Source: Candidatus Saccharimonadota bacterium (lineage in GTDB: Bacteria > Patescibacteriota > Gracilibacteria > UBA1369 > 2-02-FULL-48-14). Taken from it: a stretch of 32,000 nt of DNA. The stretch lies in assembly GCA_041661045.1 (NCBI GenBank), contig JBAZVE010000001.1, positions 810,001 through 842,000 of the forward strand. The letters are read 5' to 3'. The notes under the pieces are model-generated. The model searched no databases. It saw only the letters and a program-made list of their open reading frames with translations, and was not told the DNA's origin. Every line of letters begins with the position of its first letter. The stretch's first letter is position 1. The position numbers and the translations under genes were made by a program. Below are positions 11,052-28,256 of this stretch, piece after piece.

Positions 11052-11081
11052 AGGGTGGGGGTTAAGGGTACTGTGGCTATT

Positions 11082-11660: not shown

Positions 11661-11714
11661 ATCTTAGCAAAAAAGAATGGATTTGTCTATGTGTCAAGGG
11701 CGGGCCATTTTATC

Positions 11715-11743: not shown

Positions 11744-11751
11744 TCAACTGT

Positions 11752-12565: not shown

Positions 12566-12588
12566 ACTTATTCATAACCCCTCCTCCT

Positions 12589-12993
12589 ATGACACCTTAT
12601 GTTGACGGCTATGTCTTGCCCATTTCAAAAGACAAACTGACGGCGTATCAAGCTATGGCTTCCAATGCGGGAAAAATCTGGATGAAGCACGGAGCGCTGG
12701 CTTATTATGAATGCGTGGGAGACGATTTGAACCCTCATTTTGCCGAAGAACACACAGATGGGGGCAAAATGAAACTGTCCGCTTTCCCAGACATCATGAA
12801 AACGGGGCCGGATGAAACGGTGATTTTTGCTTTTGTGATCTACGAATCTCGCGAAGATCGTGATGCCGTGAATGCGAAGGTGATGGCCGACCCGGAAATG
12901 GCCGCTGGAATGGGCGAAGACTTCGAAATGCCCATGGATCCCAGCCGCATGGCTTACGCCGGCTTCCGCTCTATTGTGCATTATGAGAAGTGA
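12589..12993 (+). CDS. DUF1428 family protein
   Basis: 134 aa. The N-terminal YVDGYVLPI and FAFVIYESREDRD blocks resemble DUF1428. Confidence 0.6.
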   Translation: MTPYVDGYVLPISKDKLTAYQAMASNAGKIWMKHGALAYYECVGDDLNPHFAEEHTDGGKMKLSAFPDIMKTGPDETVIFAFVIYESREDRDAVNAKVMADPEMAAGMGEDFEMPMDPSRMAYAGFRSIVHYEK

Positions 12994-13011
12994 TAATGAC
13001 GCCTTGGTGCG

Positions 13012-14673
13012 CTAGTACACACTTTGCAAATAACAGCTTTCACAAAACACTATTTCCGGACGATCCGGTGAGATTGTGGAATGGAATGACTGGGTGCAGC
13101 CGGCGTTCATGCAGTTTCTGAGCCAGAATTTCCGTGGATTCCTCATTCCATGACGATTCAGTCTCCTGCAATTGAAGCATGCTCGGGGTAGGGGGATATT
13201 TTTTTTGCGGTAGTAGTTGAGTTCGTGCGCCGTGATTTTGTAGTTTTTCTTGCAGTATTCGCACGCAAGTATTTCCTCCACAATGGAATCGGTCACATCC
13301 TGGATTTTATCGGGGACTTGAGTGAGCGTTTCCTTGCCGTAGGTGCCGGGTAAATCGTCTTCCCAGTTGAATCCTTTGGCCTGCGCTTGGTCTTTTGTCG
13401 TGGGGTAAAAAAGCTGTGCGGTGGTTTCATTGTAGCCATAAGGGCTGTTTTTGATGGGAAAGAACTCGCCCCACTCGCCCGTTTGTTTCATGTATTCAAT
13501 GATCTTTGTTTTGAGTTTAAAGTAGTCTTCTTCGGAGTATTGCTTGTTTAAAATGCAGAATTTGTTTCGCTTTAAACCGAAACAGCCAAAATTTTCACTG
13601 CTGCGGTGGCAATGCATGCAATAGGTGAGATTGGAAACTTGGCCGACCGCGATGTGGCTGAAGCGAACATTAGTGACATTTGCTCCCACCATTGCACTTT
13701 CGTAACACAGCTCCATATTGATTCCGAATTGATAGATGTCGTAAGAGTCCTTGGCGTGGAGTTGAATTTGACTCAAGTATTTACAGTCTTCAATGTCGCT
13801 GCAGTCAAAACAGAATTGTGCATTTTTGGACTTATAAAGATAGTCCCCCAGGCAGTTTTCAACCATGGTGTTTTGCAGATAGCGGAATGGGTGTTTGGCC
13901 TGGAGCTCTTTAAACTTTGTTAAGTATTTTTGAACTTCTTGATGCGAACCCGTATTTAAATCTTTGATGAGGTTTTTATACGCTTCTTCACTGAGTTGCT
14001 CGTTCAAAAAACAGTATTTTTTATTTCGCAAACCCACGCACATAAAACAATCCATGCATCCCACACAATCCCTTAAAAAGGAACTGGAGGAACAGCCGGT
14101 GCAGTCTTGGCACCATGCTAAGTCATTGCTGTCCTTCACATCCACACATTCGTAACAGAGCTCTGATCCGTGGCAGTAATGCGTGTCCACACAGTCCTTT
14201 GATTTTTTAACGCCGTAGCCGTAATAACAATCTTCGGCAAAAGTGGCGTGAAAAATGAAATAGCAGTTTTTATTTTGACCTGCTTGATGAGTGTATTCGG
14301 AATTGATGTCGCCACTTTCTATCTGCACGCATTGGTGGGGGACCACCAATTCGAGCTCGCGAAACTGATCAAAAAAAGGTCGATTGAAGTCGAAATCTTT
14401 TCCGTAGGTGAGAGGGTCCCAATCATCGCCCCACCATGCTTGAACGGAGTAAACTTTCCGCGGATTTTTGGGAGAAAATTCGCTGACAATAGCTTTGCCC
14501 GTGAGATCACACTTTCGGTTGTAGAGAATGCCTTCATTGCACCAGGCCATTCGTCTCATCTCACGGCATGGAGGGCACCATGTCGGTTCCGGCACATCGA
14601 TGCGACTATAAAAAGCCCTGTCCTCCTCCATGATTTCAAAGGCTTGCGAGCAATTTTTGCATGTTTTCTGCAT
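13012..14673 (-). CDS. Cys-rich zinc-ribbon repeat protein, paralog 1 (553 aa)
   Basis: N-terminal CxxC...CPPC ribbon, DFDFNRPFFDQF, central C-rich repeats, TGEWGEFFPI, and C-terminal CEYC...CFNC and CESCY ribbons. It is colinear with the protein at 24894-26477. The start lies 8 nt after the upstream SRPBCC stop. Confidence 0.7.
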   Translation of the reverse strand: MQKTCKNCSQAFEIMEEDRAFYSRIDVPEPTWCPPCREMRRMAWCNEGILYNRKCDLTGKAIVSEFSPKNPRKVYSVQAWWGDDWDPLTYGKDFDFNRPFFDQFRELELVVPHQCVQIESGDINSEYTHQAGQNKNCYFIFHATFAEDCYYGYGVKKSKDCVDTHYCHGSELCYECVDVKDSNDLAWCQDCTGCSSSSFLRDCVGCMDCFMCVGLRNKKYCFLNEQLSEEAYKNLIKDLNTGSHQEVQKYLTKFKELQAKHPFRYLQNTMVENCLGDYLYKSKNAQFCFDCSDIEDCKYLSQIQLHAKDSYDIYQFGINMELCYESAMVGANVTNVRFSHIAVGQVSNLTYCMHCHRSSENFGCFGLKRNKFCILNKQYSEEDYFKLKTKIIEYMKQTGEWGEFFPIKNSPYGYNETTAQLFYPTTKDQAQAKGFNWEDDLPGTYGKETLTQVPDKIQDVTDSIVEEILACEYCKKNYKITAHELNYYRKKNIPLPRACFNCRRLNRHGMRNPRKFWLRNCMNAGCTQSFHSTISPDRPEIVFCESCYLQSVY

Positions 14674-14681
14674 GGATGATT

Positions 14682-15095
14682 TTACTGAAGTTGTTCGGTG
14701 AACTTTTTAAAGTTGTTTAGGATTGCCTGCCACCCGTTTCGTTGCAGTTCAAGCGAATTTTCGGATTCGGGGTCGAAGAGGACCGTCACAATTGTTCCCG
14801 CTCCTTCCGCCTCAAAATGAACTTCCACTTTTCGCGCGTCGCCTAGGGAATAGGTGAGGAGCTCGTTTGTTTTGACCTCGTCGAAGGTTCCGGAGAAATC
14901 AAAGCCAAAACTTCCGTCCTTAGCTTCCATGCGGGATGAAAAGATTCCTCCCGGTCTTAAATCGCACTCGGCTTTTGGACAGTGCCAATCGTCAGAGGCA
15001 AAGTTCCATTTTGTGATGGATTCTGGCTTTGTGTAGTGCTCCCACACTTTTTCGAGTGGGGCCTTGATGTGAACTTGGATGGAGATTTTTTCCAT
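14682..15095 (-). CDS. SRPBCC superfamily protein (AHSA1-like), second copy
   Basis: 137 aa. The LEKVWEHYTKPESITKWNF block plus its length fit AHSA1/START-like proteins. Confidence 0.75.
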   Translation of the reverse strand: MEKISIQVHIKAPLEKVWEHYTKPESITKWNFASDDWHCPKAECDLRPGGIFSSRMEAKDGSFGFDFSGTFDEVKTNELLTYSLGDARKVEVHFEAEGAGTIVTVLFDPESENSLELQRNGWQAILNNFKKFTEQLQ

Positions 15096-16679: not shown

Positions 16680-16738
16680 AGGAGGTGCTTAGTAATTAAG
16701 CATCTTAATGAATTCGTTTGTGTGGGGCAAGGCCCATG

Positions 16739-16747
16739 TGCTAATTT
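16739..16747 (+). promoter_or_regulatory. Extended -10-like element TGcTAATTT placed 6 nt before the ATG at 16754 (leaderless pattern)
   Basis: TGCTAATTT-TCCCTT-ATGAAAAAA. The context (TGTGCTA...N6...ATGAAAAAA) parallels the element at 10018. Confidence 0.35.
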
Positions 16748-16753
16748 TCCCTT

Positions 16754-17608
16754 ATGAAAAAAGAGATTTTTGCCAGCCTCCTATTTGTTTCTTTGCTCTT
16801 GGGATGTGAAAATGTTGAAGTTGTTGAAGTTGTTGATGAGCCGCTCGAAGAACTAAAAACTGAAGTTGTTGACACAAGCATAAAAGCAAACGAAGGGTTC
16901 ATTCTTTTAAACTCTATTGTTTCTAATAATGCCCAAAAAATTGTTTATAGTGAGATCAGCGAGTGTGCGGAAAGCGCGACAAATTTTAGTACTTACTTAA
17001 CAGACAAGTATTTTCAAGGAAGCAACTGTGATTCATGGGTCTACAATGTTTACACGGTCGATTTAGCCTCTCAAAAAGTTAGGAATATTTATAGCTCTGA
17101 AGATCAGTTTTCGTGGATTCCTGTTGCCAAAGCGGGTGGTTGTCAAAACATATATCTTCCCATTGCTTGGTCAAAGGATGACGGAAAAATCGTTCTGGAA
17201 AGTGCCTGGCCCCCTTCAAATTGTGGTGCCGATGGAGGCTCTGAATACCTTTATTATACTTTAGACAGTACTGGAGGTGAGCTGGAACCGTTGGCCCCCT
17301 CTACTGCACTGTTTTTCTCGGATTACAGTGAGCTTATTTTTACTTTTTCTAGCGAAAAATCACCTAGTATTTCTTGTGGTCCTGGTTCAAGCAATAATAA
17401 TGGGAAAATAGTCGTCAAGAATATAGAAACAGGGGAGGAGCGCATAGTTCTTGAGGAGGAAAATACTTATTACGAACTGGTTGGCATAGATGAAATGGCC
17501 AGGACGGTTGACTTTAAAAGTGCCCCACATACACAGGGATGCACCGTGCAAGATAGCAATCCATATGATAGTGGCGCAGAACTTGAAGAGAGAGAGCTGA
17601 GTTTGTAG
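16754..17608 (+). CDS. Lipoprotein of unknown function
   Basis: 284 aa. Signal peptide with lipobox LLLGC, an acidic VEVVEVVDE linker, and a Cys-containing beta-rich body. No recognised domain. Confidence 0.55.
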   Translation: MKKEIFASLLFVSLLLGCENVEVVEVVDEPLEELKTEVVDTSIKANEGFILLNSIVSNNAQKIVYSEISECAESATNFSTYLTDKYFQGSNCDSWVYNVYTVDLASQKVRNIYSSEDQFSWIPVAKAGGCQNIYLPIAWSKDDGKIVLESAWPPSNCGADGGSEYLYYTLDSTGGELEPLAPSTALFFSDYSELIFTFSSEKSPSISCGPGSSNNNGKIVVKNIETGEERIVLEEENTYYELVGIDEMARTVDFKSAPHTQGCTVQDSNPYDSGAELEERELSL

Positions 17609-17627
17609 GTTTTGTTTGGCGAGGTGG

Positions 17628-18626
17628 TCAACGATGATGGCGTTGGGGTTTTAGCAGTGCTTGGATTTTCCTTTGGGTACTCTCTAGTGCTGCTTCTAAA
17701 CTTTCTGATTGGTGGCCCAGCTCTCTTCCAGCTAGTTCTTGCAGGTTCATGTTTATAAATGGGTATCTCCGTTGTCCTTCTTTTTTGTGATATTCCTCCA
17801 CAGGGTCTCCTTTTCTTTTATGACGAGCGAGCAGTTCAGTCATCCGAAAAATGCTTTCTTTTGGAAAGCCGCTGCTTGCCACTCTTCTCAGAGCATCGTC
17901 CGATTCATCCACGAGAAGGATTCCAAAACTTCGATGCACCGCAATTTCATTAGGGATTATCAATTGGGGTCCTTCCCAGCCTGCTGCTCTGCCCCCTACA
18001 ATGGGTGTATTTGGGAACGACGATTGAAACGCGTACTCTAATCGAGTCGGAGTCCATCGTGCCAGAAATGCTGCGAATACCTCTCTAAAGTATCTGCTAT
18101 CTAGAGACTCGGAAAAGAATGCTTGTGAAGCCTGTGTATTTCTATTTTCTGGGTCTAGGTTTGGAGCCGTTCTTTGCGCTATCTGGATTGCCTCTGGAGA
18201 AACAAGTGCTCCATGATGCACGATTTCTCTCATATTGATGACTGCATTTTCTTCATCAATTATAGAATTGGGAAAGAGAAGATATGCGGGCTGAACATCG
18301 GCTGGATGGACTCTCCCCACTCCCAAAAAAACATAGTTATCTAAACCTAGACTGATGTCTAACTGGTCCGTTGCATTATTCAACCGGTCCTCAACAATTT
18401 CCGGGTGAACTTCTCTTAAACGGCGATGGGAATAGAGCACTCCATCACGGATTATGCTCAATAGCCTATTTATAGTGGTTCCATGTACCGCTGGCAAGTT
18501 CCTTGCTATCTCTAACTGAGTCTTATTGGGATGGATACCCTCTATAAGCATTGTCTTTGCAAGGTGCTCTCGATTGCTGTCCAGGTCAATTTGGCGGTCA
18601 AAGTAAGTTTTCAAGTGATAAGGCAA
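17628..18626 (-). CDS. Orphan protein with an ADP-ribosyltransferase-like (H-Y-E class, DarT/PARP-like) N-terminal motif; start uncertain
   Basis: 332-aa ORF beginning at TTG. Residues 48-69, HGTTINRLLSIIRDGVLYS, resemble the HxT...N.L.SIL..G.L.S strand-helix of DarT/PARP-type ARTs. YVFLGVG (about residue 98) and PNEIAV (E227) are candidate Y and E elements. The call rests on motifs only. Confidence 0.45.
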   Translation of the reverse strand: MPYHLKTYFDRQIDLDSNREHLAKTMLIEGIHPNKTQLEIARNLPAVHGTTINRLLSIIRDGVLYSHRRLREVHPEIVEDRLNNATDQLDISLGLDNYVFLGVGRVHPADVQPAYLLFPNSIIDEENAVINMREIVHHGALVSPEAIQIAQRTAPNLDPENRNTQASQAFFSESLDSRYFREVFAAFLARWTPTRLEYAFQSSFPNTPIVGGRAAGWEGPQLIIPNEIAVHRSFGILLVDESDDALRRVASSGFPKESIFRMTELLARHKRKGDPVEEYHKKEGQRRYPFINMNLQELAGRELGHQSESLEAALESTQRKIQALLKPQRHHR

Positions 18627-18638
18627 AATAGGCGGTTG

Positions 18639-18667
18639 ATTTTAATCTGTCCGTCCATAACTGTCAA
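18639..18667 (-). promoter_or_regulatory. Near-consensus promoter TTGACA-N17-TAAAAT for the 17628-18626 gene
   Basis: Minus-strand TTGACA (18662-18667), a 17-nt spacer, TAAAAT (18639-18644). This lies 12 nt upstream of the TTG at 18626. Confidence 0.5.
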
Positions 18668-18726
18668 ACACCTGTACTCTCCAAGTTGGAAATAGGGCAA
18701 AGAATATTTGTCTATTGTGAAATAAC

Positions 18727-18755
18727 TTGACAATGATGTCAAAACATTATAATAT
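18727..18755 (+). promoter_or_regulatory. Near-consensus promoter TTGACA-N17-TAATAT for the four-gene + strand cluster
   Basis: TTGACA at 18727-18732, a 17-nt spacer, TAATAT at 18750-18755 (with an overlapping TATAAT at 18748-18753). The TTG start given in the ORF track is the -35 hexamer itself. Confidence 0.55.
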
Positions 18756-18780
18756 GACAACCTTTTCTATTTTATTTTCA

Positions 18781-19779
18781 ATGAAACAAGTCCTCGCCAT
18801 CAACGCCACTCAAGGTCTAGAAGATCAGGAATATGCTGATCTAGCCTTCCATGACATTCCTCATTCTAAAGATGGTTTAGCGATCACTGCGCTCAGTGCG
18901 CACACCACTTCCGTGGATGATTTAATGGCTGCGATGCTCAAAGCAGACTTTATTGAGGCTTCAGGTTCATATTTGGATGTCGGGGTCATAGATCCTCAGA
19001 CAGGAGAGTCCCGACTCAATACCCACCCTACAGTTGTTAAGATGGTGGATCTTTTCCGGTTTTTACTTCTTATGAAGCACAAGGGAGACCCTCGTTGCGC
19101 CCGAGTGGCAGGTCTTCTCAATTGTATGAGTCATCAGGCGAATTGTGTGGCTGCTGCTACCTTGGCACGCGGTTTGCGGCAAGGAATGGATGTAGAAGCC
19201 ATTCAAGCCCCTAGTGATCTGGCAAGTCAGTGTCCTTTGGAAGAGGTATGTTCAGGTTTTGACTTCCCTCTAAAGGCTTTAACAGGTAGTCACATTGGTG
19301 CTTATCCAGTGGAATTTGCGCCTGGTGCCCCTGAATGGCTACAAGCAGGCCTTCCATCTCAAGTGCCTTTGTTGTTTCTCCACAATTGGGTGGTGCCTGC
19401 GGATGCTTTAGAAGACGCTGAGGCTGTTTTGCCTGGATTCCAGATCGCCGCTACTCGCAGAGATACCATCCGTCGAGGAGGCAGAGTCCTTACTCAACCT
19501 GTGGTGGCTCTTACGGGCTGGGGCTCTTGGGTCAGTGGACAAAACCATATGGATTATGGTGCAGATGGATCCATCTTTGCTCGCATGCTCGGGAGGGCGG
19601 TGGCCAGTGGTACTACTTTTGAAGGCACATTTTATCCTCAAAGTGGGGGACTTTGTCCTCAAACAGGATCTGAGCGCTCTATTGAAGAGGCAATTCAAGA
19701 CTTAATGAAAACCGAAACTCCGTTGAGTCTAGTGCTTCGAAATAGGGTTTTCGCTCGAGCAAGAATGGGCGAAGCATAA
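18781..19779 (+). CDS. Orphan protein A (332 aa) of the island
   Basis: Start reassigned to ATG 18781 (MKQVLAINAT...), downstream of the promoter. No motif recognised. It is not obviously membrane or secreted. Confidence 0.5.
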   Translation: MKQVLAINATQGLEDQEYADLAFHDIPHSKDGLAITALSAHTTSVDDLMAAMLKADFIEASGSYLDVGVIDPQTGESRLNTHPTVVKMVDLFRFLLLMKHKGDPRCARVAGLLNCMSHQANCVAAATLARGLRQGMDVEAIQAPSDLASQCPLEEVCSGFDFPLKALTGSHIGAYPVEFAPGAPEWLQAGLPSQVPLLFLHNWVVPADALEDAEAVLPGFQIAATRRDTIRRGGRVLTQPVVALTGWGSWVSGQNHMDYGADGSIFARMLGRAVASGTTFEGTFYPQSGGLCPQTGSERSIEEAIQDLMKTETPLSLVLRNRVFARARMGEA

Positions 19780-19784
19780 TGCTA

Positions 19785-19812
19785 TTGACTTATATAAATT
19801 TCATGTTAATAT
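19785..19812 (+). promoter_or_regulatory. Internal promoter TTGACT-N16-TAATAT ahead of the cupin gene
   Basis: TTGACT at 19785-19790, a 16-nt spacer, TAATAT at 19807-19812, 29 nt before ATG 19842. Confidence 0.45.
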
Positions 19813-19841
19813 ATACTTTTCTTATCACTAATCCTTGAATT

Positions 19842-20531
19842 ATGGAGTTGATTACCTCGGCTTCCGATCTATCTAGTACTTTAGACCGTCTGCATCCTGC
19901 TGATTATCCAGCAAGATTGAGGATGTCTCGTCCTGGATTTGAACATTTTGCTGCTCAGCTACCTGTTATTGATCCAACGCTTCCTGTTGAAATGGTTCAA
20001 GCGGAACTCCAACAGGTTAGAGCGGTTTTAGGTGGAGTATCTGGGCAACTCAAGGATCAGTGGGAACAACTAAATATTCCTCAAATGCGGGACGGAGTTT
20101 TTGGCCGAGTGATTTTAGGCATGGAGGAACCTACGGAGCTTCCTGGAGGGAACCTCCATGGAGGAACTTTAATAGTGCTGGGTTTGTGGGGCAATGGATT
20201 TGCTTGGGTCCCTCACGGGCATGAAGCTGGTTTTATGCATGAGGAGTTGATTCGTGGGGCTGCTGAAGTACGTATGTTTGATGTAGTGGATCCGGTACGG
20301 CGTACGGTAAAAGAATCTAGAAGAGTGGTTTTTGATCGACCAGGGATCATGGCTTCTGCTTATTGTCCTGAAGGTTCTGCTCCTGACTTGGGATTCAACC
20401 TTCATGCGGTCAAAGGAGTTGCGCCAGGAACTACAGTTACTCTTCACTATCTTCCTGGACATGTGCGGGATACTCGAGGTAGTGCCTTTACTGAAGTTCC
20501 CTTGGATCAAATGCCTGAATTTAGAACTTAA
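19842..20531 (+). CDS. Cupin-fold protein resembling cysteine dioxygenase type I / thiol dioxygenases
   Basis: 229 aa. PHGHEAGFMHEELIRG (H125, H127) lines up position for position with the CDO HDHTDSHCFLKLLQG block. LHAVKGVAPGTTVTLHYLPG (H188) lines up with the CDO LHRVENVSHTEPAVSLHLYSPP block. This gives a 3-His metal site. Confidence 0.55.
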   Translation: MELITSASDLSSTLDRLHPADYPARLRMSRPGFEHFAAQLPVIDPTLPVEMVQAELQQVRAVLGGVSGQLKDQWEQLNIPQMRDGVFGRVILGMEEPTELPGGNLHGGTLIVLGLWGNGFAWVPHGHEAGFMHEELIRGAAEVRMFDVVDPVRRTVKESRRVVFDRPGIMASAYCPEGSAPDLGFNLHAVKGVAPGTTVTLHYLPGHVRDTRGSAFTEVPLDQMPEFRT

Positions 20532-20533
20532 CC

Positions 20534-20554
20534 TTTACTCACTTTTTACTCACT
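20534..20554 (+). repeat. Tandem direct repeat TTTACTCACT x2 (period 11) in the 35-nt gap before the PvcA-like gene
   Basis: TTTACTCACT at 20534-20543 and 20545-20554. It ends 12 nt before ATG 20567. Confidence 0.6.
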
Positions 20555-20566
20555 TCATTTTATTTT

Positions 20567-21835
20567 ATGGAAAATCCTTCCACCACCACCGGTACCGATG
20601 CTCGCATCAGCGATCATCGTTTCAGTCGACCCTTTGATCCTGATGATGCACTGGCTCCTATTGACATCCAAGAGGGGACCTTAGACCTCTCAAGATTTGT
20701 AGTGGAAGCAGAAGAAAGTGCACAACAAAGAGCAGAGGTAGTCAGGAAACGCAATCCCATTGGAGCCAGTCTCGTTGAAGAAGATCGTGTGAGAGCTCAA
20801 GCAGAGCAGATTCTTGGTATTCTTTCTTTGGCTCGTTACCGAAAGGGTTCTGTACGCCTCATTGAAGAGGGTAAACCAGAGTTTATGGCTCGTATTGAAG
20901 ATGCTATTCGTGCTCAACGCCCTGTAGAGATCATTCTTAGTTTCTTCTGCTATAAGGCTTTGAATCCTTTGAAGACCTTTGCTCAGACTGGAACGGAAGT
21001 AGATCTTTCAGAGTATGCTTCGGTCCTTCGTTTCTACGAGATCGCAAAGGCCATTGAAGCTGTGTATGAACCTGGGGCACGCGTCCTTGTGGCGTGTGAC
21101 GGGACCAAGTACGCAGATGCCATTGGATTTACTCGTGCGCAGGGGCAGGGTTATTACGAGGCTATAAGAGCTATGGCTGAAGGAATGGGTCTAAGTGACC
21201 AAGTGGTTCTTTTTGATGAAGCTGATTACTATTCTCCAGGCATTGAAGAGAGTATGGCGATACACCAGCGGCGCATCCAGGATGCCTTGGACTCTGGTGA
21301 TCAAGCACTTAGGGATCAAGTGGGTATGATGCAACGCAGTCTCGCTCTTTATACGCCTCTTCCAGGTGGACTTTCTGTAGCTACGGTTGGAAGTGCTTTT
21401 AGTGCGATCCCCGATGAGGTGCTCGCTGCTCGCAATCCCGAGGCTATGGACTTGAGACAGTGGATTTTGGGTAGGTCTTGGGAGGTAGCTGTGCAATATA
21501 TTGCAGCTTATGATGCTGTAAAAGCAGATGGTGCATTGGCTCGAGCCGGTGCACGCGCAGTCCGTGCAACTGTCCATCCAAAGGCTGGTCAGGTTGGACT
21601 TTACGCCATCGGTGAAAGTGCAACTCAGGCTTTTCCTCACCACATTCAAGGTACTTTCAGAGGTCATAGTGTAGGTGCTTTGGGTGATGTCCGTGTAGAA
21701 TTTAGAGTGGATCTTGAACGAGAGAATGCAGAGATGCAAAGGGTCGGAGGAACTTTGCGCGGTGTCTCTTTATCTAAGCAATATCCTTTTCTTAATGCCC
21801 AGTCTTCACACCCTTTTTACTTTCAAGCTCAGTGA
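20567..21835 (+). CDS. Divergent PvcA/Dit1 (isonitrile-synthase) family protein with a ~115-aa N-terminal extension
   Basis: 422 aa. PVEIILSFFCYKALNPLK matches the family block hFVLPAFPxKSPNxxK. AVYEPGARVLVACDGTKYAD matches YxPGAxhxIxSDGxVF. AVRATVHPKAGQVGLY matches hRLSIHP...KhGI. FPHHIQG matches TPWHG. The blocks occur in the same order and similar spacing as I recall for P. aeruginosa PvcA. Confidence 0.55.
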   Translation: MENPSTTTGTDARISDHRFSRPFDPDDALAPIDIQEGTLDLSRFVVEAEESAQQRAEVVRKRNPIGASLVEEDRVRAQAEQILGILSLARYRKGSVRLIEEGKPEFMARIEDAIRAQRPVEIILSFFCYKALNPLKTFAQTGTEVDLSEYASVLRFYEIAKAIEAVYEPGARVLVACDGTKYADAIGFTRAQGQGYYEAIRAMAEGMGLSDQVVLFDEADYYSPGIEESMAIHQRRIQDALDSGDQALRDQVGMMQRSLALYTPLPGGLSVATVGSAFSAIPDEVLAARNPEAMDLRQWILGRSWEVAVQYIAAYDAVKADGALARAGARAVRATVHPKAGQVGLYAIGESATQAFPHHIQGTFRGHSVGALGDVRVEFRVDLERENAEMQRVGGTLRGVSLSKQYPFLNAQSSHPFYFQAQ

Positions 21836-21884
21836 TTTATACTGATACCATTCATCTAATCACCTAACAACCCCCCCCATTTTT

Positions 21885-22496
21885 ATGGATTATACATTAA
21901 AGTTTGCTGAGCCGAGTGAACCTCCTTATGAGGACTGGCTAAAGCGTGAGGTGACTCCAGAAGAACTGTTGCGACTTAGAGCATGGCTTTTCAGCGGAGA
22001 CAAGTTCAAGGCCCAAAAACTTACATCGGACCGTAGGGCTCCTTCTTCAGTTGATAGTTTTGATCTTATTAGGGGAAACGCCGATAAAGCTATTCGTTTC
22101 ATTGATAAAGCTCGGCTTCTTTCTGGACCTACTGGGCTAGATTGGAAGAATGCTCCTGTTCTTTGGGAAATACTTTCTTTTCGTGATGATCTTATTAGTG
22201 GGGCAGAAAGTCCCCTTGCGCAGGCCCTAGCTGAAGCTGTTGCAGCAGCAGCTGAAGATATTTTGCCGGTGCAGTTTAGGCCAGCTCTTTTGGAAGATCT
22301 GGATGCAGTCGTCCATCAAACTTATTTGCGTCGCCGGGCGATCTTGGATGCCATACAGACTTGGGATGGAGCAGATCTTAGCGGTCAGTCTCCCCTTGCG
22401 GTGGCATCTATTCTTCGCCAGTTCGATGCTGCTCCAACGCCTGACTATCTATGTGATCAAATCTCTAGAAGGCTCTCTACTTCCTTTGAAGGGTAG
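21885..22496 (+). CDS. Orphan protein D (203 aa), helical, Ala/Leu-rich
   Basis: Last ORF of the + strand cluster. No motif recognised. A C8 tract (21871-21878) ends 6 nt before its ATG. Confidence 0.45.
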   Translation: MDYTLKFAEPSEPPYEDWLKREVTPEELLRLRAWLFSGDKFKAQKLTSDRRAPSSVDSFDLIRGNADKAIRFIDKARLLSGPTGLDWKNAPVLWEILSFRDDLISGAESPLAQALAEAVAAAAEDILPVQFRPALLEDLDAVVHQTYLRRRAILDAIQTWDGADLSGQSPLAVASILRQFDAAPTPDYLCDQISRRLSTSFEG

Positions 22497-22588
22497 AGAG
22501 AATTGTCCTCAGAAAGTTCGTTTGGAATGGCGAAACATGTGAGGCCGACTCCTAAAGGTCCACGGAGGATAATGAGTTTTTGAGTCAT
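22457..22588 (-). other. 43-codon leaderless ORF or antisense transcript start overlapping the 3' end of orphan D
   Basis: Minus-strand ATG at 22588 preceded by TGCTATACT-N6. It encodes MTQKLIILRGPLGVGLTCFAIPNELSEDNSLYPSKEVESLLEI, with a stop at 22457-22459. It is below the ORF-track size cutoff. Confidence 0.3.
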
Positions 22589-22594
22589 GGCGAA

Positions 22595-22603
22595 AGTATA
22601 GCA
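22595..22603 (-). promoter_or_regulatory. Extended -10 element TGCTATACT, N6, ATG (22588)
   Basis: The plus-strand 18-mer TCATGGCGAAAGTATAGC (22585-22602) is identical to 31589-31606. Confidence 0.45.
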
Positions 22604-22607
22604 AAAT

Positions 22608-22616
22608 TGTTAGGAT
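22608..22616 (+). promoter_or_regulatory. Extended -10-like element TGtTAGGAT, N6, ATG (22623)
   Basis: TGTTAGGAT-ATGTTC-ATGAAAACA. It lies back to back with the minus-strand element at 22595-22603. Confidence 0.35.
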
Positions 22617-23375
22617 ATGTTCATGAAAACAATAGTGACGATTGGTGGTTATCTCAAAGAAGGCGGCGAAGGTGCAGGCAGTTGGCTTGATATGTGGTTT
22701 GACACCCCTATTGAAATTGATCGTGAGATTGTGAAGCTCACGGGTAAAAAGGCCCCGAGAGTGCTTTTTATACCGACTGCGAGTAGTGATTCAAGAGGTT
22801 ACGAAGCGGCTTTTAGGAAAAATTATGAAGGCAAACTCAACTGTGAAGTGGATGTGCTGAAACTTGTCCGAGAAAAATCTAGCCCTAAAGGGATCCAAAC
22901 CAAGATCGACTGGGCGGACATCATTTATGTCGGAGGTGGTAACACACTAAAGATGATGAAGAAGTGGCGTAGGCTAGGCGTGGATAAAATGCTCAAGCGC
23001 GCTTGGGAACAAGGGAAGGTTCTTTGTGGTGTCAGTGCAGGCTCCATTTGTTGGTTTGAGTATGGGATCAGCGACAGTCTTCATTTTTATAACTCAAAAG
23101 AAACGAAATACATCAGGGTGCGTGGTCTTGGTTTTTTGAAAGGTATTCACAACCCACATTTTGGAAGTGAGAGGGAAGATTGCAAATATCGTACCAAGGG
23201 TATGAAAGAAATCATGCAACGGTCTAAAGGAAAATGTTTAGGTGTTCCCGATGCGTGTGCGGTGATTTTTGAAGGGAATCACTATCGAGTTATTGGAAAG
23301 CCGGAAGCAAGTCAGGTTTGGTATGAGAAAGGCAAGTATTGTGAACGCCAGATTCCTAGAGAGGGGGTTAGCTGA
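22617..23375 (+). CDS. Peptidase S51 family protein (dipeptidase E / cyanophycinase-like)
   Basis: 252 aa. VLFIPTASSD, GGGNT and the nucleophile elbow GVSAGSICW are typical of S51. The alternative start ATG 22623 (MKTIV...) fits the leaderless pattern. Confidence 0.75.
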   Translation: MFMKTIVTIGGYLKEGGEGAGSWLDMWFDTPIEIDREIVKLTGKKAPRVLFIPTASSDSRGYEAAFRKNYEGKLNCEVDVLKLVREKSSPKGIQTKIDWADIIYVGGGNTLKMMKKWRRLGVDKMLKRAWEQGKVLCGVSAGSICWFEYGISDSLHFYNSKETKYIRVRGLGFLKGIHNPHFGSEREDCKYRTKGMKEIMQRSKGKCLGVPDACAVIFEGNHYRVIGKPEASQVWYEKGKYCERQIPREGVS

Positions 23376-23428
23376 GCCCAACTTGATGACACTCATGAAA
23401 GATGATTTAATGGCGGCTTATTTTAATT

Positions 23429-24016
23429 ATGGAAAACACAAGACGAGCGGCTTATGGGAAATTGCTTGGGCGCCTTGAAGAGCCCATTAGAGAGGTGGTT
23501 CCTGCTCTATGGGATTTACCCTTTGTCATGGACACGGGTTTCACTTGTTCAGGGCATATTCTTAGAGAGCCTGATGGGATTTTGGGCAAAAGACCTGATT
23601 TTGGTGGGTATATTTGGTATCCGCATCGGGCCATGTTGGAACTTGCTTTTTCTCATGATGAAGCCTTGGTCACAGCTCGAGATGCTTTCCGAAGAGATCT
23701 TGCGGCGGTTGCTGTTGAAGTCGATGGTCTGGCGCTTGGCTTTAATGCCGGGCATGCTTTTGACCAAGAGTTTCTGCCCTATTCACGCATCCCGGACCCC
23801 AATCTATCAGAAAATTACAATGCGGTTCTTCCTGAAGTCCCTCGAGAAGAGAGTTCTGTTATAAGAGTGGAAACCTTACTTACAGCGTTTTGGGAAGCAG
23901 TTGCTGCCGTCGTTCGCCGACACAGCCCTAATGCAAAAATTGGACCTATTGCAGGCAAAAACTTTCGAAGTAGAAAGAATTGGGATCATTGGCCGCTCTC
24001 TGGACAAGAGAAATAA
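23429..24016 (+). CDS. Hypothetical protein
   Basis: 195-aa ORF. No motif recognised. Confidence 0.45.
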   Translation: MENTRRAAYGKLLGRLEEPIREVVPALWDLPFVMDTGFTCSGHILREPDGILGKRPDFGGYIWYPHRAMLELAFSHDEALVTARDAFRRDLAAVAVEVDGLALGFNAGHAFDQEFLPYSRIPDPNLSENYNAVLPEVPREESSVIRVETLLTAFWEAVAAVVRRHSPNAKIGPIAGKNFRSRKNWDHWPLSGQEK

Positions 24017-24048
24017 GCAGTATACAATGCATTATTAGACCTCAACCT

Positions 24049-24813
24049 ATGAGTCTCAATAAATCCTTAGAAAAAACCTTGTTGGAAGCGGGCCTGAGTG
24101 AAATGGAGGCCATGGTCTACCTGAGTTTGCTTAAAAAGCCGGCGGTCAGCACCTGGGATTTGGTGATTCGTACCGGGCTCTCCAAAAGTGGGGTGTATCG
24201 CACGGTGGAACAGCTCATGAACCGCAAATTGGTGGCTCGCGATAAAGAGGGCATTCGTGCACTTTCCCTCAAAGCCTTGGTGGCAGACCTCAGTGGCAAA
24301 GAACGAAAACTGCGAAAAACAGCGCTCGACCTCAAACAAATGGCGCCTTTTTTAAAGATGGGAAACGATGCGGTGGAACGATTTGAACCCCTGTACACAA
24401 AAGACCAAATCGATGAGGCGTTTATGTTTATGGCGGAGCATGAGTACGGGGTTTGCTTGGACTTTGGAGATTGTGAATCCTTGTTTCCTCGTATAGGTGG
24501 GGTGAAGGCCGGGCACAACTTCCGCGATGAACGGGTGAAACACGCAAAAAGTGAAGCGATTCTCACCACCTGGGGGGATTATTCCGAGTATTTTTCAAGG
24601 CTGGTGGACAAGGATCGATTCCAGTTTGAGATTAACTATTTGAATCTGGATTTTAAGGACAAATTCGTGGTTTTGAACGATGAGAGTGATTATGTTTTTT
24701 TCACCCGTGTTGAAGATGAGGAACTTCAGGCGTACTTGGTGAAATCTAAGTCGATTGCCGACATTCAGCGCGCCCAGTTCAAAGCTTTTTCCCAACAACT
24801 TGGGAATAGATAA
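24049..24813 (+). CDS. TrmB-like winged-helix transcriptional regulator with a C-terminal domain
   Basis: Start reassigned to ATG 24049 (MSLNKSLEKTLLEAGLSEMEAMVYLSLLK...TGLSKSGVYRTVEQLMNRKLV), which matches the TrmB N-terminal HTH pattern. Confidence 0.65.
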   Translation: MSLNKSLEKTLLEAGLSEMEAMVYLSLLKKPAVSTWDLVIRTGLSKSGVYRTVEQLMNRKLVARDKEGIRALSLKALVADLSGKERKLRKTALDLKQMAPFLKMGNDAVERFEPLYTKDQIDEAFMFMAEHEYGVCLDFGDCESLFPRIGGVKAGHNFRDERVKHAKSEAILTTWGDYSEYFSRLVDKDRFQFEINYLNLDFKDKFVVLNDESDYVFFTRVEDEELQAYLVKSKSIADIQRAQFKAFSQQLGNR

Positions 24814-24856
24814 CAGGTTTGTTGGGCGCTGATTGCTTTAAAACTTGCGGCTCTTT

Positions 24857-24886
24857 TTGCTTGTCTTATGATGGGGCCCATTAAAT
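24857..24886 (+). promoter_or_regulatory. Promoter TTGCTT-N18-TTAAAT placed 7 nt before ATG 24894
   Basis: TTGCTT at 24857-24862 and TTAAAT at 24881-24886. The track's ATG at 24885 lies inside the -10 hexamer. ATG 24894 gives MNTCHHC, which aligns with MQKTCKNC of the paralog. Confidence 0.4.
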
Positions 24887-24893
24887 GCATTCT

Positions 24894-26477
24894 ATGAATA
24901 CCTGTCACCACTGCTCTCAACCCTTTGAAATCACGGACAGCGACCGTGCGTTTTATCAAAAAGTAGAGGTTTCTGAACCGACGCACTGCCCGGCTTGCCG
25001 CCTGCAACGCCGACTTGCGTACCGCAACGAGTCGCATTTGTACCAGCGCACTTGTGACCTCTGCCAAAAGGGCGTTTTCTCGCTCTATGATATGGATGCA
25101 CCTTTCCCGGTTTACTGTACGGACTGCTGGTGGAGCGACCGCTGGGATCCGGAAGCGTATGGCCGGGATTACGATTTCAATCGGCCATTCTTTGAACAGT
25201 TTGCCGAGCTGCTCACGGTGGTGCCACAGGCGTGTACCCTTCAACTCAACAACGAAAATTCGGAGTTCAACTCGCTTATTGCCTATTCTAAAAATGCCTA
25301 CATGTGTGCGGGTAGTTATTTTATGGAAGATTCGTATTACTGTCGCAAAAGTCAGTACTGCCGTGACTGCATGCACAGCCACTTTTTGGATCACTGTGAG
25401 TTGGTGGCCTACAGCACAAATTGTAAAAACTGCTACAGCGCGCATCATTTGCTCAACTGCCGAAACTGCTCGGCTTCTGCGTATTTGGCCAACTGCAGCA
25501 ATTGTAAAAACTGCTTCATGTGCAGCGATCTTAATGAGAAAGAGTATCACTTTAAAAATCAAGCGGTTGGCAAAGAAGAATATGAGCGACTTCGAAAAGA
25601 ATACGCACAAAAAGATCCCAAGGCCGTGATGGAGGAATTCATGGCGTTCAATCAAAGCGTGCCCAAGCGGAATCTGAACTTATTGAATTGCGAGAATTCT
25701 ACGGGGGACTACCTCAGCAGTGCCAGCAACGCGGAGGTCTGTTTTGATTCTTTCGACATCCAAGATTCAAAATACTTAACGGAATGCGTCACGGTGAAAG
25801 ATTCCATGGATCTCACCTGCCACGACAAAGAGATCCAATTGTGCTACGAAATGGTGACGGGAGGGGAGAGCAATTACCAATCCAAGTTTGGCGTGTGCAG
25901 CTGTGCTGGGCCCAACAATTCCTACTGCCTCAGCACCTTTTATCTTTCCGATAGTTTTGGATGCATCAGTTTTCATTCCCGCAAACGCAATTGCATTCTC
26001 AACAAAGCCTATTCGCCTGAGCGCTATGCGGAGCTGAAGGCACGGATCGTGGAACACATGAAATCCACGGGGGAGTGGGGAGAATTTTTCCCCATTGCGA
26101 ATAGCACCTATGCGTACAACCAGACTTTGGCTCAGGTTTATTTCCCGCTCACCAAAGAGACTGCCCTGGCTCAAGGCTACCGCTGGAAAGAGGAAGTCGA
26201 GCGCGGAGATGGCCCCAGCGCTGCACTCCGTTGTGAAGCATGCAACAAGGCCTACCGCACGGTCCCGCAAGAGAAAAACTTGGCGGGGAAGATTGGAGTG
26301 GAGAGCTCTAGCAAATGCCTCGAGTGCATGGATCGGCACTTGCTCTCTTGGAAAAACCCTCGGGCCCTTTGGCCACGCAACTGTGATCTCTGCCATGCTT
26401 CCATGATGAGCAGTTACGCTCCCGGCAGACTGGAAAAAGTTTACTGTGGCTCGTGTTATTCACAAATGGTGTATTGA
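24894..26477 (+). CDS. Cys-rich zinc-ribbon repeat protein, paralog 2 (~527 aa)
   Basis: Colinear with 13012-14673. Shared blocks: DRAFY, CPxCR, DYDFNRPFFEQF, CILNKxYS, STGEWGEFFPI, and the terminal CGSCYSQMVY versus CESCYLQSVY. Confidence 0.7.
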   Translation: MNTCHHCSQPFEITDSDRAFYQKVEVSEPTHCPACRLQRRLAYRNESHLYQRTCDLCQKGVFSLYDMDAPFPVYCTDCWWSDRWDPEAYGRDYDFNRPFFEQFAELLTVVPQACTLQLNNENSEFNSLIAYSKNAYMCAGSYFMEDSYYCRKSQYCRDCMHSHFLDHCELVAYSTNCKNCYSAHHLLNCRNCSASAYLANCSNCKNCFMCSDLNEKEYHFKNQAVGKEEYERLRKEYAQKDPKAVMEEFMAFNQSVPKRNLNLLNCENSTGDYLSSASNAEVCFDSFDIQDSKYLTECVTVKDSMDLTCHDKEIQLCYEMVTGGESNYQSKFGVCSCAGPNNSYCLSTFYLSDSFGCISFHSRKRNCILNKAYSPERYAELKARIVEHMKSTGEWGEFFPIANSTYAYNQTLAQVYFPLTKETALAQGYRWKEEVERGDGPSAALRCEACNKAYRTVPQEKNLAGKIGVESSSKCLECMDRHLLSWKNPRALWPRNCDLCHASMMSSYAPGRLEKVYCGSCYSQMVY

Positions 26478-26504
26478 GGGGTTGCATTCAAGTATAATCT
26501 GAGC

Positions 26505-26675
26505 ATGATTTTTTATTTATGCGTGGGTCGCCTCACTCACCTTTTCCAGTTTTGGCATTTGGCTTGGGACCTTACTTTCGTATCTAGCGGTTTTCATTTT
26601 TGTTTGCTCATGGACATTTGTAGCACGAAGGCAAAAATAGTTAGGCCTAGCCTTCTTGTGAGTGTCGTGATATAA
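26505..26675 (+). CDS. Possible leaderless small hydrophobic protein (56 aa)
   Basis: TATAAT (26493-26498), N6, ATG 26505. It encodes MIFYLCVGRLTHLFQFWHLAWDLTFVSSGFHFCLLMDICSTKAKIVRPSLLVSVVI. The stop overlaps the TA-operon -10 hexamer. It is below the ORF-track cutoff. Confidence 0.25.
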   Translation: MIFYLCVGRLTHLFQFWHLAWDLTFVSSGFHFCLLMDICSTKAKIVRPSLLVSVVI

Positions 26676-26676
26676 T
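26668..26676 (+). promoter_or_regulatory. Extended -10 promoter TGaTATAAT for the toxin-antitoxin operon
   Basis: TGATATAAT at 26668-26676, 29 nt upstream of ATG 26706. Confidence 0.45.
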
Positions 26677-26705
26677 GAATTCAGATTTACTTACTTTCAT
26701 ACAAA

Positions 26706-26933
26706 ATGTCTAAAATCCTTCAAGCAACGAGCCGTGGGCAAGTGACGCTTCCCAAGGCGTGGAGAGATCAATACAAGACTCAGTACTTTGTTTCCGAAGT
26801 TCAAGGGGCTGCTTTGCTTATAAAGCCCTTGATGCAAGAAGATTTTGGAGACTCTGTAGAATCTGCTTGGGCTGACTATAAAAAAGGAAATTATGTCGCT
26901 AGCGAGGAGTTAATGAAAAAGTATGGATTATAA
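26706..26933 (+). CDS. AbrB/SpoVT-domain antitoxin (type II TA)
   Basis: 75 aa. The N-terminal GQVTLPKAWRDQY swapped-hairpin motif is present. It overlaps the downstream RelE-like gene by 11 nt. Confidence 0.7.
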   Translation: MSKILQATSRGQVTLPKAWRDQYKTQYFVSEVQGAALLIKPLMQEDFGDSVESAWADYKKGNYVASEELMKKYGL

Positions 26934-27207
26934 GGTTGTTTACACCAAGCGTTCACAGAAAGATTTGGATGGGTTGGACTATTCGTTGATTCAGCGCATC
27001 TTGAAAAAAGTGGATGAATTTTCTCGAATGAGCGATCCCTTAAAGATGGCTAGCAAACTCAAGGGTTTTGAAATCGATACCTATCGATTTAGGGTAGGGG
27101 ATTACAGAGTTGTCTTTCGATTAGACCCTCAAAGCTTCCAGTTGGTCGTCTTAGTTGTACTTCGGGTGAGGCACAGGAAAGATGTTTATAGAAATTTGAA
27201 GCAGTGA
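26923..27207 (+). CDS. RelE/ParE family toxin (type II TA)
   Basis: 94 aa. YRFRVGDYRVVFRLD...VLRVRHRKDVY is the classic RelE/ParE C-terminal pattern. Confidence 0.8.
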   Translation: MDYKVVYTKRSQKDLDGLDYSLIQRILKKVDEFSRMSDPLKMASKLKGFEIDTYRFRVGDYRVVFRLDPQSFQLVVLVVLRVRHRKDVYRNLKQ

Positions 27208-27245
27208 AGTAGCTCTCCAAGCTGGAGGCAATTAGCACTGCATGG

Positions 27246-28256
27246 CTATCTTTTCCTCATAGCCTTCAGCACTTTGAGGTACATGGCTTCCACGATTTTT
27301 TCCTGTGCTTTCCCGGTGGTCACATAGTGGTCGAGTCCGGGGGCGGCATTGATCTCAATAATATAATAGCCGTCTTTTTTTGGAGCTTCGGTAATTTCTC
27401 CTTCAGTCACCATGATGTCCACGCCGGCTATCCGGAGACCCATGTCTTTTGTCAGACGGATCGCGATTTTTTTGAATTTTGGATGGATGGTGGCTGTTAC
27501 ATCTTTTGATTCGCCGCCGGTGGAGAGGTTGGAGTTTGGGAGTAGAGTTATGCTTTCACCCTTGGCGAGCACGGTTCTCAAGTTTTTGTCCTTCGATTTC
27601 AACATTTTTAAGATGCGTGGATCGCGAAGGTTGATGCGCGTGTCTCGTTTTTTCTTTTTAAAAAGTTTCTGTTTAGCTACCAGCAGTTCACTAATATTTT
27701 TTTGTCCGTCTCCCGTTACTGAAAGCGCAACCCTTTCGTATGCAGAAATGATCTTGCCATCAAGCGTCACCACTCGGTAATCCCTTCCGGGCTTATACTC
27801 TTCCACAATAGCGACCCGATCATCTTCAAATGCGTCGTTCAGTGCGCGGAGCAATTCTTTTGAATTATGCACCAAGGTGACTCCGTGCCCCTGACTGGAA
27901 GAATTTGGTTTTACGATGAGGGGATATCCGATTTTTTTCGCATAGCTCAGGGCCGTTTTGGCCGTGTCTTTGCTTCCAATTACTTTTGCCCACCAAGGTT
28001 TAAAAAATTCTTTACCGTTGGCTACCGGGTAGCCCATTTTTTGCATAAAAAATTTCGCAAAGCCTTTGTCCTTTGCAATATCCGACGCGCCGACAGGATT
28101 GAGGTCCAGCGTATAGAAACGAAGATAGCGATTCACTCCATTGCTGTAACGGATTTGTGCCACAATCTTCCATTTCGGTTCAACAATGACTTTCGCGCCC
28201 ACTTTAGGAGCCAACTTTTGTATGAGCGCGGTTAGGTAGGGCGTTTCTTTTTTCAT
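27246..28256 (-). CDS. Stand-alone ATP-grasp ligase resembling the ATP-grasp (G) domain of cyanophycin synthetase
   Basis: 336 aa. ASDIAKDKGFAKFFMQKMGYPV, YPLIVKPNSSSQGHGV, NLSTGGESKDVTATIHPKF and GVDIMV...YIIEINAAPGLDHY follow the CphA ATP-grasp block order. No Mur-ligase-like domain is attached. Confidence 0.65.
   Translation of the reverse strand: MKKETPYLTALIQKLAPKVGAKVIVEPKWKIVAQIRYSNGVNRYLRFYTLDLNPVGASDIAKDKGFAKFFMQKMGYPVANGKEFFKPWWAKVIGSKDTAKTALSYAKKIGYPLIVKPNSSSQGHGVTLVHNSKELLRALNDAFEDDRVAIVEEYKPGRDYRVVTLDGKIISAYERVALSVTGDGQKNISELLVAKQKLFKKKKRDTRINLRDPRILKMLKSKDKNLRTVLAKGESITLLPNSNLSTGGESKDVTATIHPKFKKIAIRLTKDMGLRIAGVDIMVTEGEITEAPKKDGYYIIEINAAPGLDHYVTTGKAQEKIVEAMYLKVLKAMRKR

Follow-up and report, generated by a model that had tools for sequence, protein, structure and literature searches.

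The window analysed here is a 32,000-nucleotide stretch of contig JBAZVE010000001.1 (GenBank assembly GCA_041661045.1) from a Candidatus Saccharimonadota bacterium, and our subject is a group of five genes within it, named g1–g5 (Table 1). g1 is read from the minus strand and diverges from g2–g5, which follow one another on the plus strand with gaps of 62, 35 and 48 nt (g2/g3, g3/g4 and g4/g5 respectively). A preliminary description of this DNA had given five open reading frames (ORFs) with these coordinates, and the ORF positions agreed with it. It had also treated the five genes as one unit, an idea that was rejected: only g3, g4 and g5 co-occur in related loci, and g1 and g2 were absent from all of them. 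The invariant core of the conserved cassette is, judged by sequence, a homologue of the PvcA-type isonitrile synthases (g4) together with a cupin resembling cysteine dioxygenase (CDO; g3).

Table 1. Features at the g1–g5 locus (positions are those of the window; aa, amino acids)
Feature	Positions	Strand	Description
g1	17628-18626	minus	307-332-aa protein in divergent orientation, N-terminal HGTT...SI..DG motif
Divergent intergenic region	18627-18780		154 bp between g1 and g2, promoter-like sites on both strands
g2	18781-19779	plus	332-aa orphan, opens the plus-strand block
g3	19842-20531	plus	229-aa mononuclear-metal cupin, thiol-dioxygenase (CDO/PCO/MDO) structural clade
g4	20567-21835	plus	422-aa protein of the PvcA/Dit1 (isonitrile synthase) family
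g5	21885-22496	plus	203-aa protein, fold not recognised, Peribacteria version of the cassette only
Variable island	16696-27250		~10.5 kb between an ABC transporter (<=16695) and an ATP-grasp/ddl-like gene (>=27251)

The assignment of g4 as a divergent PvcA/Dit1-family enzyme, made in the preliminary description, held up in two kinds of profile comparison. g4 matched Pfam PF05141 (DIT1_PvcA) at 58.4 bits (gathering cut-off 26.4, E = 1.1e-15), and a profile built from five homologues retrieved from the PDB the PvcA structure 3E59 (2.4e-22) and the isonitrile synthase 9DH4/9DHM (3.5e-22). The alignment with these structures runs from residue 83 to 366 of g4, against structure residues 16-289, and covers the whole catalytic domain; beyond it g4 is longer at both ends, by ~80-100 aa at the N-terminus and by ~50 aa at the C-terminus. 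In an alignment of 12 divergent family members, including sequences from candidate phyla radiation (CPR) bacteria, phages, Leuconostoc and Streptomyces, residues K130, D146, E149, D178, G179, Y196, H337, P338 and P357 were invariant, and the motif set FPxK, D..E, DG, Y, HP and P is kept in g4. The profile matches to solved structures at ~1e-22 over residues 83-366 and the nine invariant residues together indicate that g4 is a complete PvcA-fold enzyme. By sequence comparison it is a member of this family and not an orthologue of the L-tyrosine isonitrile synthase PvcA. The closest relatives of g4 are found in Candidatus Peribacteria/Peregrinibacteria, and NCBI labels g4 an 'L-tyrosine/L-tryptophan isonitrile synthase family protein' and g3 and g5 'hypothetical'. 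More distant g4-like genes occur in Actinobacteria and Leuconostoc. Those of their neighbours that matched Pfam encode a major facilitator superfamily transporter, an aminotransferase IV, an Stf0 sulfotransferase and another, weakly matching, PvcA-like domain; no cupin partner was found beside these distant genes.

The second core protein, g3, proved at the level of fold and family to be a CDO-like cupin, probably of the 3-His type, as had been proposed. By itself g3 matched no Pfam or NCBIfam family above threshold, and neither g3 nor its three closest relatives matched Pfam CDO_I or PCO_ADO even at E<=10. An exhaustive HMMER search with g3 collected 107 cluster representatives; when 80 family members were taken individually, 24 matched CDO_I (best 1.7e-5) and eight matched PCO_ADO, and a profile of the 80 sequences retrieved CDO from the PDB at 3.5e-5. 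An AlphaFold2 model of g3, computed from the multiple alignment of the family, had a pLDDT (predicted local distance difference test) of 95.4 and a pTM (predicted template modelling score) of 0.91. When the PDB was searched with this model using Foldseek, thiol dioxygenases (CDO, plant cysteine oxidases and 3-mercaptopropionate dioxygenase) filled ranks 1-33 of the 50 matches listed, with a best E of 7e-7, and the highest target-normalised template modelling (TM)-score among these matches was 0.71, for Bacillus subtilis CDO. The viral structures in BFVD gave generic cupins only.

Across the 80 sequences R89, H125, H127 and G139 are invariant, and E134, H188 (at least 90% conserved) and H202 are near-invariant. 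The position of the canonical cupin glutamate (residue 132 in g3), which is Cys in CDO, is hydrophobic, and the HMMER alignment places H188 of g3 three residues off H140 of CDO. The family motif S/T-L-H202-Y203-L-P brings its Ser/Thr and His into alignment with S153 and H155 of CDO. g3 is probably a 3-His Fe(II) cupin, with iron as the predicted metal. Thiol dioxygenases (CDO, 3-mercaptopropionate dioxygenase, plant cysteine oxidase and ADO) share with g3 the HxH...H arrangement of candidate metal ligands and the Ser/Thr-x-His on the last strand, and they provide both its best fold matches and its only significant profile matches. The distance is nevertheless large, as none of the structural alignments listed exceeds 20% sequence identity, and the g3 family adds the near-invariant Glu134, a helical N-terminus of ~85 aa and, usually, a further domain that we call A4. 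A segment of the g3 type also turned up in P0061, a 2549-aa protein in which ten separate stretches match g3, the best-scoring one covering g3 residues 188-216; P0061 resembles a repeat protein carrying an IHNF...LHYLPEH segment as in g3.

The genes that belong together were defined by four Peribacteria lineages, in which g3, g4 and g5 form a triad in three different gene orders. At locus L002 the order is g4, g5 and a g3–A4 fusion; at L004 it is g3, g4 and a g5–A4 fusion; and at L008 it is g4, a g5–A4 fusion and g3, so that g5 is fused to A4 in two of the four lineages. Conservation of the gene set in spite of this reshuffling, and the alternative fusions of A4, point to a functional linkage of g3, g4, g5 and A4. 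The synthase is not always accompanied: in a low-GC Peribacteria genome (locus L009) a g4 homologue with 41% identity (8061-9173) has no g3, g5 or A4 nearby, showing that it can occur without a CDO-like partner. A 132-aa ORF situated 2 kb upstream of that gene has a cupin-like sequence but is unrelated.

The pairing of cupin and synthase extends well beyond the Peribacteria. A co-occurrence census was made of about 25 loci out of the 107 cupin representatives, leaving out of the adjacency count L034 and L044, whose contigs end too early. The cupin adjoins a PvcA-like gene (~300-380 aa) in 21 of the 23 distinct loci with enough flank, the pair being present at L028, L029, L030, L032, L033, L036, L037, L039-L043, L045, L046, L049, L050, L052 and L054 and absent at L027 and L048; it was found in 13 of 15 metagenome loci. 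Both cellular and viral DNA are represented: L028 is a cellular contig with the pair, L029, L030 and L054 are phage-like, and the IMG/VR viral contigs with the pair include L032 and L033. Four IMG/VR viral contigs (70-125 kb) carry the cupin, and all three in which the locus extends past the cupin also carry a PvcA-like gene. Assignment to phages was based on IMG/VR membership, on dense small ORFs lacking Pfam matches and on PHROG matches of neighbouring genes; the neighbours on phage-like contigs include PHROG matches, YqaJ, Phage_TreK and one phage RNA-polymerase-like protein. A tblastn search of 50,697 GenBank phage records with a phage-type cupin gave no match, and the cassette families were not found in PHROGs, PADLOC or the GenBank phages.

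Two of these loci have neighbours of their own. L052 and L053 represent a cellular variant of the cupin and PvcA pair lacking A4, flanked (L052 70-6738, also L053) by genes for an ARMT1-like damage-control phosphatase (3e-17), an FGE-sulfatase-domain protein and a 347-aa protein with a weak glyoxalase/VOC match. The products of these flanking genes could be further enzymes of the pathway, perhaps pointing to chemistry on sugar phosphates or thiols. On the viral contig L030 (IMG/VR contig 3300012943_000031), the 6 kb that follow the cassette downstream contain genes for PolyA_pol, TerD, HAD, PRTase_3 and vWA-TerF-like proteins (9586-15011), which make up a nucleoside-metabolite set of the Ter type.

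Around the two core enzymes, three accessory families vary with lineage. g5 homologues adjoin g4 in L002, L004 and L008 and were seen only in Peribacteria cassettes; W87, K88, P91, W94, L97-S98-F99, D140, H144-Q145 and R149-R150 are invariant among them, and g5 matched nothing in Pfam, NCBIfam, PDB, PHROG or PADLOC. A4 is a domain of about 100-110 aa that usually stands C-terminal on g3-type cupins, as it does in ~80 of the 106 cupin relatives of g3 (~75%). A few cupin proteins carry it as a tandem pair (P0042 and P0077), and it also exists alone as a 137-aa gene in the phage-like locus L029 (8075-8488). A4 had no credible match in PDB or Pfam, and an A4 hidden Markov model found nothing in the six-frame ORFs of the window. 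In phage-type loci the PvcA gene is followed by a conserved ORF of ~110 aa; the resulting phage triad occupies 7001-9306 at L030, for instance. Homology of g5 to this ORF was ruled out (hhalign probability 0.1%), as were hidden copies of A4, g5 or the ~110-aa ORF in g1, in g2, in the C-terminus of the L028 protein or in the neighbours at L052 (hhalign probabilities all <1%).

g1 and g2 stand outside this conserved set. A search of 5.8 billion proteins for g2 homologues returned only g2 itself, and it had no match in Pfam, NCBIfam or PDB; its codon usage is like that of g3-g5, with which it is possibly co-transcribed. For g1, two homologues were found (P0008 and P0009), in unrelated contexts with no PvcA-like gene. 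H48, Y98 and E134 are invariant in g1, but in an alignment of three sequences only. g1 gave nothing above threshold in Pfam or NCBIfam; its match to Pfam DarT scored 13.2 bits against a cut-off of 22.5 (E 0.074) over 32 residues only (48-79), and a g1 profile found no ADP-ribosyltransferase (ART) and nothing credible in PDB. An ART-like fold of g1 is therefore possible but unproven. All five proteins, together with the phage triad, were also compared with PHROGs and PADLOC and gave no match.

The spacer between g1 and g2 carries the two near-consensus promoter-like sites that had been described. On the minus strand the site is TTGACA-17-TAAAAT (18667..18639, score 11/12) and on the plus strand TTGACA-17-TAATAT (18727..18755, score 10/12); promoter function is predicted for them from the motifs. 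The 32-kb window contains nine sites scoring at least 10/12 vs 5.2 +/- 2.1 in shuffles, and two scoring 11/12 vs 0.55 expected. Three of the nine fall within the 154-bp spacer, indicating that the enrichment there is local and real. The other 11/12 site, also TTGACA-17-TAAAAT, is at position 10006 on the minus strand.

Codon usage in the five genes was compared with that in the other 25 window genes, and the bias towards T/A-ending codons noticed in the preliminary description was confirmed (pooled chi-square 240, 41 degrees of freedom, p 5e-30). The fractions were 0.53 vs 0.24 for CCT among Pro codons, 0.43 vs 0.25 for GCT/Ala, 0.33 vs 0.17 for TCT/Ser and 0.26 vs 0.14 for AGA/Arg. The GC content at third codon positions (GC3) is 0.32-0.39 in the five genes vs mostly 0.41-0.60 elsewhere in the window, and is also low in the neighbours 16754-17608 and 23429-24016. 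The expectation that composition would differ from the flanks thus held for codon usage but not for total GC, which at 0.45-0.50 is the same as in the rest.

The five genes lie in a variable island (Table 1) that also contains the gene 16754-17608, a Peptidase_S51 gene, the gene 23429-24016, a TrmB regulator, a Cys-rich ORF and a ParE gene. In the complete genome of a Candidatus Peregrinibacteria relative, CP064962.1 (L026), the flanking anchors are conserved at 80% (ABC) and 85% (ddl) nucleotide identity, whereas in the ~8.9-kb interval between them neither blastn nor tblastx found anything matching the window island, and the transposases encoded there are of the rve, Y1_Tnp and DDE kinds. 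This unrelated content between shared anchors shows that the segment at 16.7-27.25 kb of the window is a replaceable hotspot. The island status is consistent with the codon bias of the five genes, and the two findings, bias and replacement of the whole ABC-to-ddl interval, support the foreign or variable origin hinted at in the preliminary description. No tRNA was found anywhere in the window, the island borders included.

Several other genes in or beside the island deserve mention. The Peptidase_S51 gene (22617-23375, cyanophycinase/dipeptidase E family, 2.3e-46) and, in or beside the island, a gene for a 336-aa ATP-grasp protein annotated as 'cyanophycin synthetase' (27246-28256) may together provide this CPR genome with a small module for a peptide resembling cyanophycin. 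The Cys-rich ORF (24885-26477, plus strand, 530 aa) has repeated CxxC/NCxNC motifs and a weak treble-clef zf_Tbcl match; the public annotation overlaps it with minus-strand calls at 24765-25550 and 25776-26396, the exact protein is not in the protein collection, and the region is probably mis-called there. A ParE-family toxin gene (26923-27207, plus strand) and a 75-aa ORF upstream of it, together spanning 26706-27207, lie at the ddl-proximal edge of the island, and a ParE gene is also present in the non-homologous island of CP064962.1. Further on, at 30958-31425 on the minus strand, is a SET-domain protein.

The start sites and the genetic code used for these assignments were checked. Other gene callers start g1 at ATG 18551 (307 aa), but conservation between g1 and P0009 reaches upstream of that codon, favouring TTG 18626 and the long form. 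For g2 other callers use 18733/18736 (a 347-aa version), whereas the T-rich context upstream of ATG 18781, as at other window genes, favours the latter over 18733. None of 15 candidate starts inspected in the window (e.g. 1133, 19842, 20567 and 21885) is preceded by a Shine-Dalgarno motif, which suggests non-Shine-Dalgarno translation initiation in this lineage; T-rich tracts precede several of them. TGA terminates five of the 30 window genes and the stop codon of g4 is in register with the ends of its homologues, so that code 11 is appropriate and the alternative genetic code 25 was ruled out.

Characterised isonitrile synthases combine the amino nitrogen of Trp or Tyr with a carbon from ribulose-5-phosphate, and an Fe(II)/2-oxoglutarate (2OG) enzyme then decarboxylates or desaturates the isonitrile product; a 2024 review distinguishes two bacterial routes, one with a PvcA/IsnA-type synthase and an Fe/2OG oxygenase and the other with ScoE-type Fe/2OG enzymes (PMC11350588). 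By Pfam, none of g1, g2, g3 and g5 contains a 2OG oxygenase, TauD or P450 domain, in agreement with the earlier remark that the synthase is paired with a CDO-like cupin rather than with the usual Fe/2OG or P450 partner. Because a CDO-like cupin is what is conserved beside the synthase, and no 2OG enzyme is present, the pathway that we infer, in its substrates, its product and the order of its steps, has the cupin supplying the O2-dependent step. g4 would link an amino acid, or a related primary amine, through its amino group to the carbonyl of a sugar phosphate, which is ribulose-5-phosphate in its characterised relatives, and would release an alpha-isocyano (or N-formyl) acid. The cupin would oxidise the same molecule with O2 and without 2-oxoglutarate, either by oxidative decarboxylation or desaturation, which is the role of PvcB/IsnB in known pathways, or by thiol oxidation should the substrate derive from cysteine. 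A4, as well as g5 of the Peribacteria and the ~110-aa ORF of the phages, would serve as lineage-specific accessory parts. A functional precedent is SbzM, a cupin dioxygenase recruited to the biosynthesis of altemicidin/SB-203208, where it oxidises and decarboxylates cysteine in a reaction modelled on cysteine dioxygenase chemistry (PMC6331615); such chemistry is thus feasible for the cupin fold. SbzM thus offers a functional parallel for what g3 may do, although it works with an aldehyde dehydrogenase, not an isonitrile synthase. Taken together, we propose that g3-g4-g5 is the local copy of a conserved cassette encoding a pathway of the isonitrile type with two enzymes, an O2-dependent cupin taking the place of the Fe/2OG partner, a proposal whose chances of being right seem to us evenly balanced.

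Compared with known systems, the cassette is closest to PvcA–PvcB and IsnA–IsnB (AmbI1-3), with which it shares a homologous synthase over the whole catalytic domain, motif residues included, next to a mononuclear non-haem-iron-type beta-barrel enzyme (PMC11350588). It differs from them in that the partner is a CDO-like, probably 3-His cupin and not a TauD-type Fe(II)/2-oxoglutarate dioxygenase, in the terminal extensions of g4, and in g5, A4 and the ~110-aa ORF, which have no counterpart there. The hosts differ as well, being Pseudomonas, Xenorhabdus and cyanobacteria for those systems vs CPR bacteria and phages for the cassette. In fungi the partner of an isonitrile synthase is a P450 (Dit2), a fused dioxygenase or nonribosomal peptide synthetase-like domains. 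Yeast Dit1–Dit2 (spore-wall N-formyl/dityrosine) and the fungal CrmA and XanB are similar in combining a PF05141 synthase with one oxidative enzyme, but these systems are not known to involve a CDO-clade cupin. Nothing in the searchable literature connected isonitrile synthases to CPR bacteria, to phages or to cupins of the CDO type and, within that literature, the pairing is undescribed, as the preliminary description had supposed. Thus the kind of enzyme is known, whereas the pairing, the accessory domains and the distribution in phages and CPR bacteria appear to be undescribed.

Several observations weigh against the proposed pathway. The Pfam match of g4 covers only profile positions 1-113 of 273, in the N-terminal half of g4, and g4 scores 33 bits on the NCBIfam PvcA equivalog model NF045653 vs a cut-off of 600, so the substrate of g4, and even its reaction, could differ from those of PvcA. 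In the g3 family the equivalent of CDO Cys93 is L/I/M, so that the residues of the Cys93-Tyr157 cross-link are missing, and the Tyr follows His202 directly (+1, not +2), out of register with the Ser-His-Tyr triad S153-H155-Y157 of CDO; thiol dioxygenation is therefore not implied for g3. The window cassette is without the A4 domain carried by ~75% of the cupin family and could be incomplete. Finally, no transporter, regulator or resistance gene is linked to the cassette, and phages carry it often, which is uncommon for secondary metabolism and may reflect another role. The cassette recurs in CPR bacteria and in ~100-kb phage genomes, and so probably makes an undescribed small molecule by a new route. 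The fuller version of this proposal, a minimal isonitrile-type (or C1-on-nitrogen) route using a 2OG-independent, CDO-like 3-His cupin, usually with A4, in place of the Fe/2OG oxygenase, spread by ~100-kb soil phages and kept by genome-reduced Peribacteria, is one that we consider somewhat less likely than not.

In a rival reading the chemistry is not of the isonitrile kind, and the two enzymes would act on a nucleotide, sugar phosphate or signalling molecule, in phages perhaps as an auxiliary or counter-defence function that, for example, destroys or modifies a host metabolite; the Peribacteria copies would have been acquired from phages, or the reverse. This fits the four IMG/VR viral contigs with the cupin, three of them also with the PvcA-like gene, and the further phage-like contigs with the pair, as well as the Ter/PRTase nucleoside-type genes near one viral cassette, the ARMT1-like sugar-phosphate phosphatase at one cellular locus and the divergence of the C-terminal half of g4 beyond the reach of Pfam. 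However, the PvcA catalytic-motif residues are fully conserved, no PADLOC or PHROG family was matched, and no DNA-modification or nucleotide-metabolism gene is consistently linked to the cassette. We consider this reading unlikely.

A macromolecule might instead be the target, the PvcA-like enzyme turning an N-terminal or side-chain amine of a peptide or protein into an isonitrile or formamide and the cupin acting, like PCO or ADO, on a protein-bound residue. As substrate or scaffold, CPR bacteria would supply g5 and phages the ~110-aa protein, or else a protein of the host or virion would take that part. Plant cysteine oxidases are among the best structural matches of g3 (PCO2 has the highest query-normalised TM-score, 0.52, among the matches listed), the PvcA gene is always trailed by a small lineage-specific ORF, the shift of A4 between g3 and g5 fusions suggests physical association, and phage carriage is compatible with modification of a host or virion component. 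Yet the characterised PvcA/Dit1 enzymes all use free amino acids (PMC11350588; PMC9381783). Moreover, g5 and the phage ORF are non-homologous and have no conserved N-terminal Cys, and one phage ORF lacks both conserved cysteines, which leaves modification of a macromolecule decidedly improbable.

In the original version all five genes would work jointly in an effector or small-molecule system, g1 being a toxin of the ADP-ribosyltransferase type and g2 an enzyme that the system cannot do without. The divergent promoter region and the low GC3 are shared by the five genes, and g1 has the HGTT...SI..DG motif and the sub-threshold DarT match; against this, g1 and g2 are missing from every other cassette locus, the homologues of g1 sit in unrelated contexts and g2 has none, and the low GC3 reaches neighbours beyond the five genes, making such a system highly improbable. 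That the window copy is a remnant in decay, a cassette lacking A4 that was acquired horizontally into a hotspot collecting orphan genes and now serves no function, is scarcely credible: the missing A4, the replaceable island and the orphan neighbours would fit, but the g3, g4 and g5 ORFs are intact with all family-invariant residues kept, a second A4-less cupin and PvcA locus is known (L052/L053), and strong promoter-like sites lie upstream.

The pairing of a synthase with a thiol-dioxygenase-like cupin predicts new enzymology, either an O2-only tailoring of isocyano acids or sulfur chemistry on a cysteine-derived isonitrile, and probably also a new class of metabolite. Three uncharacterised families, A4, g5 and the phage ~110-aa ORF, are now defined with a genomic handle, and the system is small, its two or three genes being open to direct heterologous expression. 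Isonitrile natural products are potent metal binders and antibiotics. Should the cassette indeed encode a minimal isonitrile-type route shared by soil phages and Peribacteria, phages would be encoding isonitrile biosynthesis and CPR bacteria would have a pathway resembling those of secondary metabolites, with a product that might serve in metal binding or host takeover. The distribution is unusual: the CPR bacteria are ultra-small, depend on hosts and have a very limited metabolism, and the phages are large and environmental. It suggests that the cassette acts between cells or between virus and host, and not in classical secondary metabolism.

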